Source of the DNA: a virus
Lineage: Duplodnaviria; Heunggongvirae; Uroviricota; Caudoviricetes
DNA: 18,841 nt
IMG/VR virus record: IMGVR_UViG_2718217868_000006
Reading direction: 5' to 3' (one strand)
The translations under genes and the position numbers were made by a program. Below, in pieces: positions 1 to 17,511 of this stretch. The number at the start of each line of letters is the position of its first letter. The stretch's first letter is position 1. Under the pieces are notes generated by a model, which made no database searches, had not been told where the DNA came from, and saw only the letters and a program-made list of their open reading frames with translations.

Positions 1-585
1 CTATTCGATAATGGGTACTGTTGGCCATTCAATATCCGGTGCAGTTGTTGTATTAACACGGTTCAGCAACACCCGATATTTTTTCCAGGCTTCCAGCAAT
101 GAGGTTTCTTCCTCCGTTGCGATCTCCAGATCTACAGCATCCTGAAGTGGCGCTATATGCTCACTGGCTACCTGCATCAGGCTGTTTTTTGTTTCGTCCG
201 CCTCCCGGATCCGGAACAGTTTTTCTGCTTCCGTATCCTTCACCCAGGCTGTGCCGTTCCACTTCTGATATTCCCCTTCCGGCGATAACCAGGTGACATT
301 TTCCGGTAACGGACCGAGTTCAGAAATAAATAACGCGTCGCCGGAAGCCACGTCATAGACGGTTTTTCCCCGATGATCTTCAACGAGATGCCACGATGCC
401 TCATCACTGTTGAAAACAGCCACAAAGCCAGCCGGAATATCTGGCGGTGCAATATCGGTACTGTTTGCTGGCAGACCTGTATGAGGCGGAATATATGCGT
501 CACCTTCACCAATAAATTCATTAGTTCCGGCCAGCAGATTATAAATTTTTATGGTCCGTGGTTGTTCACTCATTCTGAATGCCAT
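1..585 (-). CDS. tfa: Tail fiber assembly protein (Tfa family)
   Basis: 194-aa ORF, ATG at 585..583, stop at 3..1. Translation recognised as lambdoid tail fiber assembly chaperone; immediately follows a tail-fiber C-terminal ORF with a TAATG stop/start overlap. Confidence 0.8.
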
Positions 586-3823: not shown

Positions 3824-4411
3824 TTACATCATGTCTTTTTCTAAAAAAAATCTTGATGAATATTGATGGAGAGGAACACCAAAATACCTTCTGAAAACAC
3901 TTACAAAATATGACGTGTTTTCATAACCGCATATCTCAGCAACTTTTCCAACAGAATATAAATTGTAGCTTAATAACCTTTCCGCCATCACCATTCGCTC
4001 TTCAAGAATTAACTTACTAAATGATAAGCCTTCGTGCTTTAATTTTCTTTTTAACAGACTTTCACTCAGATACAGTCTTGAAGATATATCACAAAGTCTC
4101 CATGCTGCAGATATATCCGTATGAATAATAGCCTTAACTTTACTTCCTAAACTATTAAGACATCCAAATAAAAAACTTTGCACTATTTTCTCTGAAGATA
4201 AGATAGCAAGACATGCAAGTGATATTTGATTTCTAACAAAATCCACAGTTCTGCCATCACAATTCAAGCATGCAATCAAGTTCTTTAACAATGAAAAATC
4301 TTCACATTCCACCATCAAGTATGCCGGATAAAACCTTCTTACAGAAAAAGGTGAGAGTGTGTTGCTTTTAAAGAAATCATTAACTGTTTTCTCTTCAACA
4401 TCTACGATCAT
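3824..4411 (-). CDS. AraC/XylS-family transcriptional regulator (short, AT-rich cargo gene)
   Basis: 195-aa ORF with a C-terminal double helix-turn-helix region typical of AraC-family proteins (…SFSKLILEERMVMAERLL…VGKVAEICGYENTSYFVSVFRRYFGVPLHQY). Markedly AT-rich coding and flanking DNA. Confidence 0.7.
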   Translation of the reverse strand: MIVDVEEKTVNDFFKSNTLSPFSVRRFYPAYLMVECEDFSLLKNLIACLNCDGRTVDFVRNQISLACLAILSSEKIVQSFLFGCLNSLGSKVKAIIHTDISAAWRLCDISSRLYLSESLLKRKLKHEGLSFSKLILEERMVMAERLLSYNLYSVGKVAEICGYENTSYFVSVFRRYFGVPLHQYSSRFFLEKDMM

Positions 4412-4904
4412 TACATGATCTATATTTGATGAAAAAAATCTTTTAAATTGTAATCAATGAGAACAGCACTTCCTTTTTAAACAAAATATCTTCTTTACCA
4501 ATTCGGACATCAAACGAGTTCAACACCAAAATAATAGAACATATGTATGGCATATTATCCACCTGATATCATTGGGGTTACACCAGGTAAGTATAGGTGG
4601 AAAATCAATATTCGCCAGTTCAACAATAAGGAAAATTTCATTGCATCACAAGTATAAAATTATGTATTTAACTCACAAAGACAAATTATTAAACCAATCT
4701 GTTATATTATATATAGCTGCGTGGAATCATAATATTATATATTTTGACTGGCATGTTTACCAACTTTAAGTTGCATCTCAATTGTTTCTTCAGCGTAAAC
4801 AGAGTTTTTATACAAACTGACACTCTGGGTATCATAGTGTAGTTTTTACGATTGTAAATATCCTGCATGCAGGAACTCATCCTTTTGGATGATATCGCAT
4901 ACAA

Positions 4905-5864
4905 TTAATTTACCATCAGTCTTAGAGCCAGTTCGTCCGGATAGGGATCGAAGTAATTCTGTGTAAGCAAGTAATCATTAGGATACTCACCCAGATAATG
5001 CTTCAGCAGAGTCAACGGCGCAAGAAGAGGTAATGTGCCAGAACGATAGTTAAGTATAACCTCGCTCAACTCTTTACGCTGGCGTGTACTTAAGTAGTTA
5101 CTAAAATACCCCTGTATATGCATCAGCACATTCGTGTGATTTTTACGTGATGCAGGTTTTCTGAGAATCGCCATCAGCTTATCACGATACACCTCAAAGT
5201 ATGATTCAAGGTCCGCCCACTCGTGTATTGCAGCCACAAATGGTCCCATATCTTTATAGCCTGCCTGACTATGCGCCAACAACTGAAGCTTATAACGACT
5301 ATGAAAAGCTAATAACTCTCTTCTTGATAATTTCTCCTTGTAAAGGTGATTGAGCTCATGCAAAGCAAAAACTCTTTCAACAAAATTCTCACGAAGCACT
5401 GGATCATGTAATCGCCCATCCTCTTCAACCGGTAGCCAGGAAAACTTTTCCATCAAAGTGCTCGTAAATAGTCCCACTCCATCTTTACGACCTCGATTAC
5501 CATTTTCATCATAGACACGCACGCGCTCCATGCCACAGCTGGGAGATTTAGCACAAACCACAAACCCCGATACATCCTTTAATTTGTCCATATAAGAACG
5601 ACTAAACTCTGTCATTCTCTCTGTCACATCCTCATTCTGGTCGTGGCTGAAACACATCCGTATATTTCCTTGCATCGAGCGCACAAGACGTAGAGCAGGA
5701 CGCGGAACTGGCAGCCCTATAGCCATTTCCGGACATACTGGTCTGAATGTTACCCATTCCACTAATTTGTCCATTAAAAAGTCAGCTCTTTTGTGACCAC
5801 CATCAAAACGAACAGCAGAACCGGCCAAACAACCGCTGATTCCAATCACAGGTTTTTTTATCAT
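4905..5864 (-). CDS. DUF523(TudS-like)/DUF1722 fusion protein, putative [4Fe-4S] thionucleoside desulfidase (RudS-like)
   Basis: 319-aa ORF. N-terminal half has the three-Cys signature of DUF523/TudS (GISGCLAG, RPVCPE, SPSCG); C-terminal half resembles YbgA-type DUF1722. SD AGGGGGAGAAT upstream of ATG at 5864. Confidence 0.65.
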   Translation of the reverse strand: MIKKPVIGISGCLAGSAVRFDGGHKRADFLMDKLVEWVTFRPVCPEMAIGLPVPRPALRLVRSMQGNIRMCFSHDQNEDVTERMTEFSRSYMDKLKDVSGFVVCAKSPSCGMERVRVYDENGNRGRKDGVGLFTSTLMEKFSWLPVEEDGRLHDPVLRENFVERVFALHELNHLYKEKLSRRELLAFHSRYKLQLLAHSQAGYKDMGPFVAAIHEWADLESYFEVYRDKLMAILRKPASRKNHTNVLMHIQGYFSNYLSTRQRKELSEVILNYRSGTLPLLAPLTLLKHYLGEYPNDYLLTQNYFDPYPDELALRLMVN

Positions 5865-6056
5865 ATTCTCCCCCTTGACTAATTCATTAACACATAAACT
5901 GTGTAGTGCACGGAATAAATTGCCTTTCTGGCGTCATCACTGACAATTTTTCTGTTATGGACTATTCCTAATATAGTATGAAAGTTCTTTAAGTGATCGG
6001 TCGTAATCATCTATCTTTCATACTTACTCTCAACTATCAAAAGTACAGGATTTATT

Positions 6057-6581
6057 ATGAAGTTATGGCCTGTGTTGACTGGCATTGCACTCTCTTTCAC
6101 TCTTATAGCATGTAAGGCCCCGACACCACCTAAAGGTGTGCAGCCGATTACAAATTTTGACGCCAACCGCTACCTCGGAAAATGGTATGAAATAGCTCGC
6201 CTCGAGAACCGGTTCGAACGTGGTCTGGAACAGGTCAGCGCTACTTATGGAAAACGGAACGACGGAGGGATTCGTGTACTTAACCGTGGATACGATCCAA
6301 CGAAAAATAAATGGAGCGAGAGCGAAGGTAAAGCATACTTTACTGGAGATACTAAAACTGCAGCATTGAAGGTTTCGTTTTTTGGCCCCTTCTATGGTGG
6401 CTATAATGTAATCAAACTGGATGATGAGTATAAGTATGCTCTTGTCAGTGGTCCGAACAGAGAATACCTATGGATTCTGGCAAGGACCCCAACTATTCCA
6501 GATAAAGTAAAAGCAGACTATGTGCGAACCGCTCAAAAGTTGGGATTCAATGTCAATGAATTATTATGGGTTAAACAATAA
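6057..6581 (+). CDS. Bacterial lipocalin (Blc-like outer-membrane lipoprotein)
   Basis: 174-aa ORF with lipoprotein signal (lipobox LIAC) and strong similarity to remembered E. coli Blc (…FDANRYLGKWYEIARLENRFERGLE…KVSFFGPFYGGYNVI…YLWILARTP…). Encoded opposite to late transcription. Confidence 0.85.
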   Translation: MKLWPVLTGIALSFTLIACKAPTPPKGVQPITNFDANRYLGKWYEIARLENRFERGLEQVSATYGKRNDGGIRVLNRGYDPTKNKWSESEGKAYFTGDTKTAALKVSFFGPFYGGYNVIKLDDEYKYALVSGPNREYLWILARTPTIPDKVKADYVRTAQKLGFNVNELLWVKQ

Positions 6582-6736: not shown

Positions 6737-7129
6737 TTATTTCGAACAATCAGCATCCATCTCCAATCGGAGATCCAACACCATCAGCATACCCTCCACT
6801 ACGCCCTCAGCTTTCTGAAGCATCCTGCCAACCCAACAATCAGATCGCCCATGCTTACGTGCAAGCGCCATAAAAGTCATGCCGCCGACATAATAGTCCA
6901 CCAATAAATCATGCAAATCGCTGTTGTTCTTTTTCAGACGGGCCATGCACCCGCAAATGATCATCGCGTCATCGTCACAACATTGTGGGCGAGATTTTAC
7001 TTTTGAAGGAATTAATCCCTTAAAACCGGCGGCAATGGACGACCAGGTCACATCTTCATGATTATTAGCCGCCCACGCTCCCCAACGCTCAAGAACCATC
7101 TGAATATCACGCATCAACTTACTCCACAA
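6737..7129 (-). CDS. Q: Late-gene antiterminator Q (DLP12 QuuD / phage 21-82 type)
   Basis: 130-aa ORF with a Cys-rich segment ([12 protein letters not shown]) and similarity to remembered QuuD; sits between rusA/ylcG and the lysis genes. Start may be the internal Met at 7114. Confidence 0.75.
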
Positions 7130-7199: not shown

Positions 7200-7340
7200 T
7201 CATACTCCTGCTCCTGTCAGTGTTTTGGCGTAATTCTTCAGTATTCGGTAATCGGTCAAAACAGAACCGGGGAAACGATATAAGCGCAGACGCCCCCAGC
7301 GGTGGCGAAGAAGTTCTGCCATATTAAACTCAAACATCAT
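7200..7340 (-). CDS. ylcG: YlcG-like small protein (46 aa)
   Basis: Not on the ORF track (under 60 aa). ATG at 7340 overlaps the rusA stop (ATGA); translation [46 protein letters not shown] matches remembered DLP12 YlcG, between rusA and Q. Confidence 0.6.
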
Positions 7341-7699
7341 TCATTCCCCATTTCGGTGATGGTCAGTTCCAGCCTCCCACCTTTGGTAACAGGCATCTTC
7401 ACAACGCGGTAATCAACGACCTGAGCATCATCCAGCCAGAAACCTGCTTTAGTGAGTGCGTCAAAAGCGGCTTTTTGCAGATTATCCAGGTCACGGCGAC
7501 GGCGATCCGGCATGTGGCACTCAATGCGGATTTTCACAGGCATAGTCAGGCCGATATCCAGCATTGCGTTTTTAATGATTCGGGCGACGTTATCGCGGTA
7601 TGCCTGCCCCTCTGCGCTGACGTGCGTGCGCCCGCGATTATGGCGGTAATAGCGATTATTGCTCGGAGGCCAGGGTAATGTGATGCTGTAGGTATTCAC
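7337..7699 (-). CDS. rusA: Holliday junction resolvase RusA
   Basis: 120-aa ORF, GTG start, near-identical to remembered E. coli RusA ([26 protein letters not shown]…). Confidence 0.9.
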
Positions 7700-7788
7700 G
7701 CCTTAATAACCCCCTCTTTCAGCCAGATACGCTCCTGTCCGGCAAAGTTACCTCTGCCGAAGTTGAGTATTTTTGCTGTATTTGTCAT
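7696..7788 (-). pseudogene. O: Replication initiator O remnant: first 20 codons of lambda O fused to 10 unrelated codons
   Basis: ATG at 7788 with lambda O N-terminus MTNTAKILNFGRGNFAGQER, then divergence ([10 protein letters not shown], stop) running into the rusA GTG. No iterons/ori or P gene follow. Confidence 0.8.
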
Positions 7789-7798
7789 AATGACTCCT

Positions 7799-7875
7799 GT
7801 TGATAGATCCAGTAATGACCTCAGAACTCCATCTGGATTTGTTCAGAACGCTCGGTTGCCGCCGGGCGTTTTTTA
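7799..7875 (+). ncRNA. oop: oop antisense RNA (about 77 nt) overlapping the 3' end of cII
   Basis: + strand sequence GTTGATAGATCCAGTAATGACCTCAGAACTCCATCTGGATTTGTTCAGAACGCTCGGTTGCCGCCGGGCGTTTTTTAT matches remembered lambda oop RNA with its terminator. Candidate po promoter: -35 TTGAGT 7763..7768, -10 CATAAT 7786..7791. Confidence 0.7.
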
Positions 7876-8114
7876 TTGGTGAGAATCGCAGCAACTTGTC
7901 GCGCCAATCGAGCCATGTCGTCGTCAACGACCCCCCATTCAAGAACAGCAAGCAGCATTGAGAACTTTGGAATCCAGTCCCTCTTCCACCTGCTGATCTG
8001 CGACTTATCAACGCCCACAGCTTCCGCTGTCTTCTCAGTTCCAAGCATTGCGATTTTGTTAAGCAACGCACTCTCGATTCGTAGAGCCTCGTTGCGTTTG
8101 TTTGCACGAACCAT
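7821..8114 (-). CDS. cII: Transcriptional activator CII
   Basis: Translation from the ATG at 8114 (MVRANKRNEALRIESALLNKIAMLGTEKTAEAVGVDKSQISRWKRDWIPKFSMLLAVLEWGVVDDDMARLARQVAAILTNKKRPAATERSEQIQMEF, 97 aa) matches remembered lambda CII. The track ORF extends upstream to 8174, but the phage start is 8114. Confidence 0.9.
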   Translation of the reverse strand: MVRANKRNEALRIESALLNKIAMLGTEKTAEAVGVDKSQISRWKRDWIPKFSMLLAVLEWGVVDDDMARLARQVAAILTNKKRPAATERSEQIQMEF

Positions 8115-8193
8115 ATGTAAGTATTTCCTTAGATAACAATTGATTGAATGTATGCAAATAAATGCATACACCATAGGTGTGGTTTAATTTGAT

Positions 8194-8225
8194 GCCCTTT
8201 TTCAGGGCTGGGATGTGTAAGAGCG
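8194..8225 (-). promoter_or_regulatory. nutR (boxA CGCTCTTA and boxB GCCCTGAAAAAGGGC)
   Basis: On the - strand between cro and cII: boxA at 8225..8218, boxB hairpin at 8208..8194, matching the lambda nutR consensus. Confidence 0.8.
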
Positions 8226-8233
8226 GGAATGTC

Positions 8234-9588
<1,355 letters not shown>

Positions 9589-10273: not shown

Positions 10274-11143
10274 ATGAAGAAAATTGATTACAAGTCCATA
10301 CCAAAACCAATAGACTCAGCATCAGAGCGAAAAAAACACAAAAAAGAGGCTGAAAAATTAGCAAATTATATCAGTTTTATTAGAAACAATGCTCACGGCG
10401 ATGGCGACAGGAAGTTGCTTTCAGATGCCCGGACCCAAGCGTTCAGCATACTTCGTAAGCAGATGCAATATCGTCTTCATCCAGGCTACATAATTGAAAT
10501 TCGCCCGACTGAAAGACAATTGTTCTTATTAAACTCTGTCTTTGACTTTGTAAACGTAGTTGGAGATCTTATCGACAGGTCTGTAGATAAGGCTCCTGAT
10601 ACAAATAGTTTTCTTCTAACAAATAAAGAATACTTATATGGTAAATTTGGTATAAACGGATGGCAAAAATATGTACGATTCTTACGTGCATTCGTTGATG
10701 CGTATAAAAATTCCGACATGATTTATACATATTTGCCTGGTGGTAATAATTGTACGCTTTCGGCAGACAATAGAATATTCATACCTATACTTGGTCTTGG
10801 GCTGATTAATGCAGTAAATGAAAGAGATGTTATAATTGTTAAGCAGTGGCGAAAGCATGAGGGATATAGATATCTGCCATGCTTTGATATATTAAAAATA
10901 CAGAATAAATTCTATGTAAAAATTAAATATAAAGAAGATGTTTTCTTCCTCAGAAAAAACAAAGATCTTTTACAAGAACTTTCTGGGACAATAGATGTCA
11001 TCGTAGGTTCTAGGTTTATAAAAGAACTGAAAGAAAGCAGGTCTTTCTCTCGTGTAGAGATAAGCGAGTCAGAGTTATGGGGTATATCAAATAATCCTGT
11101 AAACCACGCTCACCAACGAAATCCAAACAAAAAGTGGTCATAA
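10274..11143 (+). CDS. Hypothetical protein, 289 aa, AT-rich; unrecognised gene in the N-to-ea10 slot
   Basis: Long ORF immediately after N (alternative ATG at 10262 overlaps the N stop; ATG at 10274 has a GAGG SD). No family recognised by eye; rich in Lys/Asn/Tyr/Phe. Followed by a strong terminator. Confidence 0.6.
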   Translation: MKKIDYKSIPKPIDSASERKKHKKEAEKLANYISFIRNNAHGDGDRKLLSDARTQAFSILRKQMQYRLHPGYIIEIRPTERQLFLLNSVFDFVNVVGDLIDRSVDKAPDTNSFLLTNKEYLYGKFGINGWQKYVRFLRAFVDAYKNSDMIYTYLPGGNNCTLSADNRIFIPILGLGLINAVNERDVIIVKQWRKHEGYRYLPCFDILKIQNKFYVKIKYKEDVFFLRKNKDLLQELSGTIDVIVGSRFIKELKESRSFSRVEISESELWGISNNPVNHAHQRNPNKKWS

Positions 11144-11700: not shown

Positions 11701-11772
11701 GCGCGGCGTTACCGCATACCAATAACGCTTCACTCGAGGCGTTTTTCGTTATGTATAAATAAGGAGCACACC

Positions 11773-11937
11773 ATGCAATATGCCATTGCAGGGTGGCCTG
11801 TTGCTGGCTGCCCTTCCGAATCTTTACTTGAACGAATCACCCGTAAATTACGTGACGGATGGAAACGCCTTATCGACATACTTAATCAGCCAGGAGTCCC
11901 AAAAAATGGATCAAACACTTATGGCTATCCAGACTAA
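11773..11937 (+). CDS. cIII: CIII (FtsH/HflB inhibitor stabilising CII)
   Basis: Not on the ORF track (54 aa). Translation [54 protein letters not shown] matches remembered lambda CIII; SD AAGGAG upstream. Confidence 0.9.
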   Translation: MQYAIAGWPVAGCPSESLLERITRKLRDGWKRLIDILNQPGVPKNGSNTYGYPD

Positions 11938-12425: not shown

Positions 12426-13211
12426 ATGAGTACAGCACTCGCAACGCTGGCTGGGAAGCTGGCTGAACGCGTCGGCATGGATTCTGTCGACCCACAGGAA
12501 CTGATCACCACTCTTCGCCAGACGGCATTTAAAGGTGATGCCAGCGATGCGCAGTTCATCGCATTGCTGATCGTCGCCAACCAGTACGGCCTTAATCCGT
12601 GGACGAAAGAAATTTACGCCTTCCCTGACAAGCAGAACGGCATCGTTCCGGTGGTGGGCGTTGATGGCTGGTCCCGTATCATCAATGAAAACCAGCAGTT
12701 TGATGGCATGGACTTTGAGCAGGACAATGAATCCTGCACATGCCGGATTTACCGCAAAGACCGCAATCATCCGATCTGCGTTACCGAGTGGATGGATGAA
12801 TGCCGCCGCGAACCATTCAAAACCCGCGAAGGCAGAGAAATCACGGGGCCGTGGCAGTCGCATCCCAAACGGATGTTACGGCATAAAGCCATGATTCAGT
12901 GTGCCCGTCTCGCCTTCGGATTTGCTGGTATCTATGACAAGGATGAAGCCGAGCGCATTGTCGAAAATACCGCATACACTGCAGAACGTCAGCCGGAACG
13001 CGACATCACTCCGGTTAACGATGAAACCATGCAGGAGATTAACACTCTGCTGATTGCCCTGGATAAAACATGGGATGACGACTTATTGCCGCTCTGTTCC
13101 CAGATATTTCGCCGCGACATTCGCGCATCGTCAGAACTGACACAGGCCGAAGCAGTGAAAGCTCTTGGATTCCTGAAACAGAAAGCCACTGAGCAGAAGG
13201 TGGCTGCATGA
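12426..13211 (+). CDS. bet: Bet (Red-beta single-strand annealing recombinase)
   Basis: 261-aa ORF near-identical to remembered lambda Bet ([37 protein letters not shown]…). Confidence 0.95.
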
Positions 13212-13888
13212 CACCGGACATTATCCTGCAGCGTACCGGAATCGACGTGAGAGCTGTCGAACAGGGGGATGATGCGTGGCACAAATTACGGCTCGGCGTC
13301 ATCACCGCTTCAGAAGTTCACAATGTGATAGCAAAACCCCGCTCCGGAAAAAAGTGGCCTGACATGAAAATGTCCTACTTCCACACCCTGCTGGCTGAGG
13401 TTTGCACCGGTGTGGCTCCGGAAGTTAATGCTAAGGCGCTGGCATGGGGAAAACAGTACGAGAACGACGCCAGAACTCTGTTTGAATTCACTTCCGGCGT
13501 GAATGTTACTGAATCCCCGATCATCTAACGCGACGAAAGTATGCGTACCGCCTGCTCTCCCGATGGTTTATGCAGTGACGGCAATGGCCTTGAGCTGAAA
13601 TGCCCGTTTACCTCCCGGGATTTCATGAAGTTCCGGCTCGGTGGTTTCGAGGCCATAAAGTCGGCTTACATGGCCCAGGTGCAGTACAGCATGTGGGTGA
13701 CGCGAAAAGATGCCTGGTACTTTGCCAACTATGACCCGCGTATGAAGCGTGAAGGCCTGCATTATGTCGTGGTTGAGCGGGATGAAAAGTACATGGCGAG
13801 TTTTGACGAGATGGTGCCGGAGTTCATCGAAAAAATGGACGAGGCACTGGCTGAAATTGGTTTTGTATTTGGGGAGCAATGGCGATGA
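13208..13888 (+). pseudogene. exo: exo (lambda Red 5'-3' exonuclease) interrupted by an in-frame ochre codon at 13526..13528
   Basis: A single frame of 226 codons matches lambda Exo throughout ([11 protein letters not shown]…GEQWR), but codon 107 is TAA where lambda has Tyr (…ESPII[15 protein letters not shown]…). The ORF track shows the two halves as 13208..13528 and 13541..13888. Confidence 0.85.
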
Positions 13889-17423: not shown

Positions 17424-17511
17424 TGATTTTATTTTGACTGATAGTGACCTGTTCGTTGCAACAAATTGATAAGCAATGCTTTTTTATAATGTCAACTTAG
17501 TATAAAAAAGC
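17424..17511. promoter_or_regulatory. Prophage-host junction: P' arm with Int arm-type sites plus the 15-bp core (attL-type junction)
   Basis: Sequence after the int stop matches the lambda P' arm (…GACTGATAGTGACCTGTTCGTTGCAACAAATTGATAAGCAATGC…). Core TTAGTATAAAAAAGC (reverse complement of GCTTTTTTATACTAA) at 17497..17511 is followed by AGGCTTCA, matching the bacterial attB side. Confidence 0.9.

Follow-up and report, generated by a model that had tools for sequence, protein, structure and literature searches.

A single recent, lineage-specific deletion has very probably removed the replication module from an imm434 lambdoid prophage that was already defective and that occupies the lambda attachment site of E. 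coli strains H5 and H6. The window, which is the whole 18,841-nucleotide stretch of DNA that was analysed, corresponds to positions 3399121–3417961 of the H6 chromosome (NZ_CP010170) and is also present in identical form in strain H5. It covers nearly all of a prophage situated between ybhB/bio and ybhC, which is bounded by two 15-bp lambda att cores, GCTTTTTTATACTAA, one at window position 17497 and the other just outside the window at L001 10742 (10742 and 30298 in L001 coordinates). The cores delimit an element of 19.56 kb that has kept its early genes and lost the essentials of the lytic cycle, as is typical of a defective lambdoid prophage: head and tail genes, cos, O, P and ori are all absent.

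The scar of the deletion is a 30-codon open reading frame on the minus strand (translated from window 7788 to 7696) in which codons 1–20 of O run in frame into the final 10 codons of ybcO (DUF1364), giving the composition O(1-20)::YbcO(87-96). Window positions 7728–7798 correspond base for base to lambda 38676–38746, a stretch that takes in the pO region, the Shine-Dalgarno sequence of O and nucleotides 1–61 of the gene; the promoter-proximal context, the Shine-Dalgarno and the first codons are those of lambda, and the start is that of authentic O. The 20 retained residues are 100% identical to O of the prophage in strain AR_0369, the closest relative, which is 99.4–99.5% identical to H6 on both sides of the junction. 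The full-length O of AR_0369 matched PF04492 (Phage_rep_O) at residues 22–115, so that this N-terminal DNA-binding domain, which recognises the ori iterons, begins at O residue 22 and is missing from a stub that ends at residue 20. Similarly, the full-length YbcO of AR_0369 (96 aa) matched PF07102 with an E-value of 6.3e-41 over a domain of approximately 92 residues, of which the stub contains the last 10 only. In the relatives a 96-codon YbcO/DUF1364 gene precedes rusA with the same GTGA overlap that is seen in H6, where the stop codon of the stub (TGA, 7698–7696) overlaps the GTG start of rusA (7699–7697). The chimeric reading frame is missing from the RefSeq annotation and had no Pfam or PHROG match; this unannotated O'-'ybcO stub deserves to be flagged as a deletion scar. 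The initial annotation had located the authentic O start, the truncation after codon 20 and the stop overlapping the rusA GTG, and the identity to lambda and the GTGA overlap show its coordinates and description to be accurate. It had also described the sequence after codon 20 as divergent; the sequence does depart from O at this point, but that description understated the tail, which is the true C-terminal end of YbcO (PF07102), read in its own frame.

Alignment to lambda, which had been proposed as a check, and to the relatives fixed the breakpoint at window 7728–7729. These two positions hold a TA dinucleotide common to both parents, being nucleotides 60–61 of O (lambda 38745–38746) and the boundary of ybcO codons 86/87; similarity to the rusA side of the relatives reaches position 7729, and similarity on the O side starts at 7728. 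The megablast alignments overlapped by 8–11 nucleotides (window 7719/7722–7729), and longer homology at the junction was considered; examined base by base, the resemblance was imperfect and gapped, CAGCCAGAT-AC against CTGCCACATTAC, with an exact overlap of TA only. When random junctions were simulated from the same sequences, microhomology of at least 2 bp arose at a frequency that places the observed overlap at chance level (P = 0.16), and an in-frame join is expected once in three by chance. These two features are the only chance-level parts of the scar, the rest of which is deterministic rather than statistical. Homology-driven recombination was rejected because the exact overlap is limited to TA and is of a length expected at random. 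An IS-mediated deletion was likewise rejected, as no IS sequence or remnant was found at the junction, in contrast to strain A23, where a deletion occurred through IS1. From the sequence of the junction we infer that the deletion arose by illegitimate, essentially homology-independent recombination, in which one event at the 2-bp TA overlap would have joined O and ybcO in frame by chance.

A collapse or misassembly of the H5 and H6 sequences, with the real prophage still carrying O, P and the nin genes, is very unlikely. Both records carry the junction as a clean in-frame join in finished circular chromosomes, and the breakpoints have just 2 bp in common, which leaves no repeat to collapse. 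The two genomes do come from one project and are 100% identical over the whole 18.8-kb window, so they do not confirm each other independently and were counted as a single lineage; the two assemblies agree, but the strains are probably clonal.

The content of the missing segment was examined in the att-lambda prophages of AR_0369 and TUM1881, which occupy the same chromosomal site as the H6 element and are 99.4–99.8% identical to it in the imm434-cII and rusA-ylcG-Q blocks. These prophages differ from H6 in keeping O, P, the nin region and cos. The distance between the positions of the two breakpoints is 4261 bp in AR_0369 and 3557 bp in TUM1881, which carries a different nin mosaic; the deletion therefore measures approximately 3.6–4.3 kb, with the content and length of the ancestral segment uncertain because the nin region is mosaic. 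The segment in AR_0369 contains O residues 21–299 with ori (four iterons), P, a ren pseudogene, a VasI/TagO-like moron, two small open reading frames, ybcN, ninE and ybcO codons 1–86, and the loss in H6 would accordingly have taken in O codons 21–299 with ori, P, ren, the small moron, ybcN, ninE and the first 86 codons of ybcO. The VasI/TagO-like (type VI secretion-associated) moron of the relatives lies between ren and the nin genes (L003 16036–16530, minus strand) and has its own strong terminator.

The initial annotation had stated that the origin iterons, the remainder of O, P, ren and the nin genes upstream of rusA were absent, and this was borne out by an iteron scan and by the comparison with AR_0369. 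With up to 3 mismatches allowed, the iteron ATCCCTCAAAACGAGGGA matched nowhere in the window; the four 18-bp iterons inside O that define ori-lambda are present in phage 434 and lambda and are lacking here. Searches of the 41-kb locus with the deleted segment and its proteins gave no blastn or tblastn match except O residues 1–20 and the last 10–15 or so residues of YbcO. Neither the RefSeq annotation of the 19.6-kb prophage nor Pfam and PHROGs scans of its hypothetical open reading frames showed a further initiator, a helicase loader or a primase for replication; a second initiator of this kind had been named in the initial annotation as grounds for rejecting its interpretation.

The last of these results bears on whether the short reading frame and the adjacency of cII and rusA could derive from a complete phage whose replication module is of another type and lies elsewhere, a possibility that had been named at the outset as one that would overturn the interpretation. 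Lambdoid phages are mosaic, and their nin regions differ greatly among relatives. Nevertheless, such an origin is exceedingly improbable: the halves of the reading frame match parts of O and ybcO exactly, cos and every virion gene are missing from the element, and no replication family was present among its annotated or scanned reading frames. The junction was absent from 50,697 phage records, none of which covers 80% or more of window 7200–8200, so the tail was not recovered as a genuine short gene of any complete phage in that set. No viral contig carries the junction either, and an exact 28-mer across it gave 0 matches in IMG/VR, in the JGI metagenomes and in the GTDB species representatives.

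Part of window 7200–8200 was matched in 3970 of the 5426 complete E. coli genomes, and only two of them, H5 and H6, span the junction. The arrangement imm434-cII-O with O running past the breakpoint was found in 142 genomes, and a nearly complete AR_0369-type segment in 54. The deletion is recent and private to the H5/H6 lineage. An accession-based literature search on H5 and H6 found nothing; the specific allele is new to the searched literature, while the kind of event is ordinary and well understood.

Lacking ori, O and P, the element would be incapable of lambda-type theta replication either in situ or after excision, as judged from the biology of lambda, and because ori is cis-acting, O and P supplied by a helper phage could not rescue it. 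The host would at the same time be freed from ori-dependent 'replicative killing' and from the toxicity of P on derepression, which may have aided persistence of the deletion. A derepressed, trapped cryptic lambda fragment with ori, O and P kills its host, the cells that survive have an insertion or deletion in O or P, and P alone is toxic (PMC3640518). The replicative-killing-resistant (RK-) mutants of the Hayes laboratory are comparable to the H6 allele in that O, P or ori is inactivated in a defective lambda prophage and killing on derepression is abolished (PMC3640518); to this functional class the H6 allele adds a deletion that arose naturally. The RK- constructs differ in being without int, xis, kil and att and in having been selected by cI857 thermal induction, while the H6 element is natural, imm434 and excisable, has no known selection and is not a 'trapped' fragment. 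A modest selective benefit of the deletion is plausible, and neutral decay fits equally well; the deletion, being confined to a single lineage, gives no signal of selection. The H6 prophage is a base-pair-resolved natural case of a lambdoid prophage losing its cis-acting origin and trans-acting initiators in one deletion, and it parallels the laboratory survivors of 'replicative killing'.

The genes on either side of the scar were well preserved, as had been noted initially for cII, oop and rusA. The cII gene (7821–8114, minus strand) encodes a protein identical to lambda CII, and the 77-nucleotide oop antisense RNA (7799–7875, plus strand) is identical to lambda 38675–38599, as are its terminator hairpin (7845–7872) and the 71 nucleotides of upstream DNA that contain its promoter region. 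The oop RNA is annotated in phage 434; an Rfam search for it returned nothing at the gathering score. The pO promoter-like hexamers TTGAGT-17-CATAAT (7763–7791, plus strand) lie in the kept stub of O, in a region identical to lambda. Upstream, the immunity region (cI, cro and operators) is 98.7–99.4% identical to that of phage 434 and includes a 434-type cro (8234–8449, minus strand), pR upstream of it at about 8505–8477, and an intact 434-type cI repressor gene of the LexA family (8555–9187, plus strand). Reading frames of normal length were found for cI, cro, N, Q, holin, endolysin, Rz, int and xis.

The rusA gene (7337–7699, minus strand) has a GTG start, is intact and matched PF05866 with an E-value of 2.6e-23 over residues 9–114. 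Its product aligned over 120/120 residues with the crystallised E. coli enzyme (PDB 1Q8R), with 119 residues identical and one change, A52T. It retains R69, D70, D72, N73, K76, D90 and D91, which include the catalytic residues as listed, with their roles, in PMC1636454, and by its sequence RusA is an intact Holliday-junction resolvase. Downstream of rusA lie the small gene ylcG (7200–7340, minus strand; RefSeq, phrog_2705) and an annotated gene for a Q-family antiterminator (6737–7114, minus strand), which matched PF06530 with an E-value of 2.5e-51. The early-right genes run along the minus strand of the window, and the order of the pR operon is now pR-cro-nutR/tR1-cII-O'::'ybcO-rusA-ylcG-Q, with rusA 1.2 kb from the repressor-controlled pR and Q approximately 1.35 kb downstream of this promoter instead of approximately 5.6 kb. 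Compared with the early-right operon of lambda and 434 (pR-cro-cII-O-P-ren-nin-Q), the H6 prophage has 434-type cI, cro and operators and lambda-identical cII, oop, pO and O nucleotides 1–61, and it shares with lambda the integration site, att core and int/xis. It differs from both in lacking O residues 21–299, ori, P, ren, the nin genes up to rusA, cos and the virion genes, and from lambda also in having rusA as the resolvase gene of the nin region in place of ninG/rap.

Since the deletion leaves rusA and Q near the 434 repressor/pR switch, which responds to SOS, the prophage could have been domesticated, with the deletion selected for this proximity and for the removal of toxic replication genes and intervening terminators, leaving the host with a damage-inducible Holliday-junction resolvase cassette. 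The product would be a small SOS-inducible cassette unable to replicate, 434 cI/pR-cro-cII-O'::'ybcO-rusA-ylcG-Q, with the synthesis of RusA coupled at the level of translation to an O' stub that is initiated efficiently, and H5 and H6 would gain a damage-inducible back-up resolvase together with terminator-free access to Q and the intact lysis genes. Both the selection and the cassette are improbable. In their favour, RusA is intact and differs very little from the active enzyme, cI, cro, N and nutR have been kept, a strong terminator-like hairpin inside the deleted DNA (L003 16019–15998, minus strand) was lost with the segment, and the in-frame fusion preserves the GTGA overlap behind the strong Shine-Dalgarno of O. 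The rusA gene of K-12 stays silent unless IS2 or IS10 inserts upstream and switches on its transcription; the activated gene then suppresses ruv defects (PMC1636454), and this activation resembles the easier induction of rusA and Q from the 434 switch that may apply in H6. Set against this, the deletion is found in one lineage only, the microhomology and the reading frame of the join are what chance would give, neighbouring genes are decaying (the exo nonsense mutation and the HTH frameshift described below) and the host presumably has ruvABC. Moreover, the undeleted relatives already have rusA in a pR operon with N, so the wiring is not qualitatively new.

Under the favoured reading, rusA would keep its native stop/start coupling geometry, with ribosomes now arriving from the AGGAG Shine-Dalgarno of O. 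The DLP12 prophage of E. coli K-12 (ybcO-rusA-ylcG-quuD) is similar in being a defective lambdoid prophage with a rusA-ylcG-Q-type block, its RusA being identical at 119/120 residues. DLP12 occupies a different chromosomal site and is not known to carry a cI-cro-cII-O region. Its rusA is also transcriptionally silent (PMC1636454), in contrast to the position of the H6 gene near a repressor-controlled promoter. The lambda nin5 deletion resembles that of H6 in falling in the P-Q interval, a region carrying transcription terminators; a nin5 phage still has intact O, P and ori and is viable, however, whereas the H6 deletion begins inside O and destroys replication. The nin5 deletion removes tR2 and makes expression of Q less dependent on N. 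Phages carrying nin5 and a pR-cro-O-P-ren-tR2 construct are mentioned in PMC3640518. The understanding of phage and host biology is unchanged by the H6 allele, which offers a minor lead on rusA expression.

The prophage carries several further lesions private to H6, and these bear on the view, put forward in the initial annotation, that loss of the replication genes had made the element cryptic and locked it into the chromosome. Neither part of this view held. The AR_0369 prophage keeps O and P yet has already lost the genes for head and tail, with nu1' joined to 'lom, so the element was cryptic before the replication module was lost. Excision is still possible, since the reading frames of int (356 aa) and xis (72 aa) are intact, as are the two 15-bp att cores; the excised circle would simply be lost. 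A second, larger deletion in the late region of H6 has its junction at approximately 1180/1181, where a tail-fibre fragment (585–1184) adjoins the ylcI region, and all head and tail genes, nu1 and cos, GGGCGGCGACCT, are absent. The relatives L002, L003 and L004 keep cos approximately 124 bp past the start of homology to the window. Without cos, head or tail genes the H6 element would be unpackageable even by a helper phage.

The lambda-type exo gene (13208–13888, plus strand) carries a Y107* nonsense mutation in H6 that is absent from AR_0369, while bet and gam are intact. An AraC-like HTH gene (3824–4553, minus strand), flanked by the YbgA gene and the lysis cassette, has a frameshift in H6 and is intact (243 aa) in AR_0369 and A23. 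Strain A23 has independently lost the interval from Q' to N of the same att-lambda prophage through IS1 copies (L004 8059–10750); this loss starts within the 5' part of Q, extends past N and takes in rusA, the replication genes and all of the immunity region, and it is a parallel route of decay. The exo Y107* mutation, the HTH frameshift and the loss of cos point to decay that is still continuing in H6, as part of an erosion that is stepwise and lineage-specific. Large surveys have found that incomplete prophages preferentially lose replication, packaging and release genes (PMC7744054), and the H6 element illustrates such stepwise prophage decay.

A block of cargo ('moron') genes was observed between Q and the lysis genes (4905–6581), containing a YbgA/DUF523-DUF1722 gene (4905–5864, minus strand) and a gene for a Blc-like lipocalin lipoprotein (6057–6581, plus strand). 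In other lambdoids the interval between Q and the lysis genes carries stx or nmpC. A gene for a diguanylate cyclase with a sensor domain lies outside the window in the b-region, between the tail-fibre assembly gene and attR (L001 11397–12728), and is probably also prophage cargo. Two RNA elements scored above the Rfam gathering threshold, IS009 inside the tail-fibre assembly gene (44–242, minus strand; 221 bits) and the lambda cIII thermoregulator (11760–11818, plus strand; 88.5 bits). Adjoining N is a gene for a 289-aa protein (10274–11143, plus strand) whose C-terminal 20 residues match a Nun-like transcription termination factor (phrog_5632); its equivalent in phage 434 is annotated as 'Nun C-terminal peptide-containing protein'.
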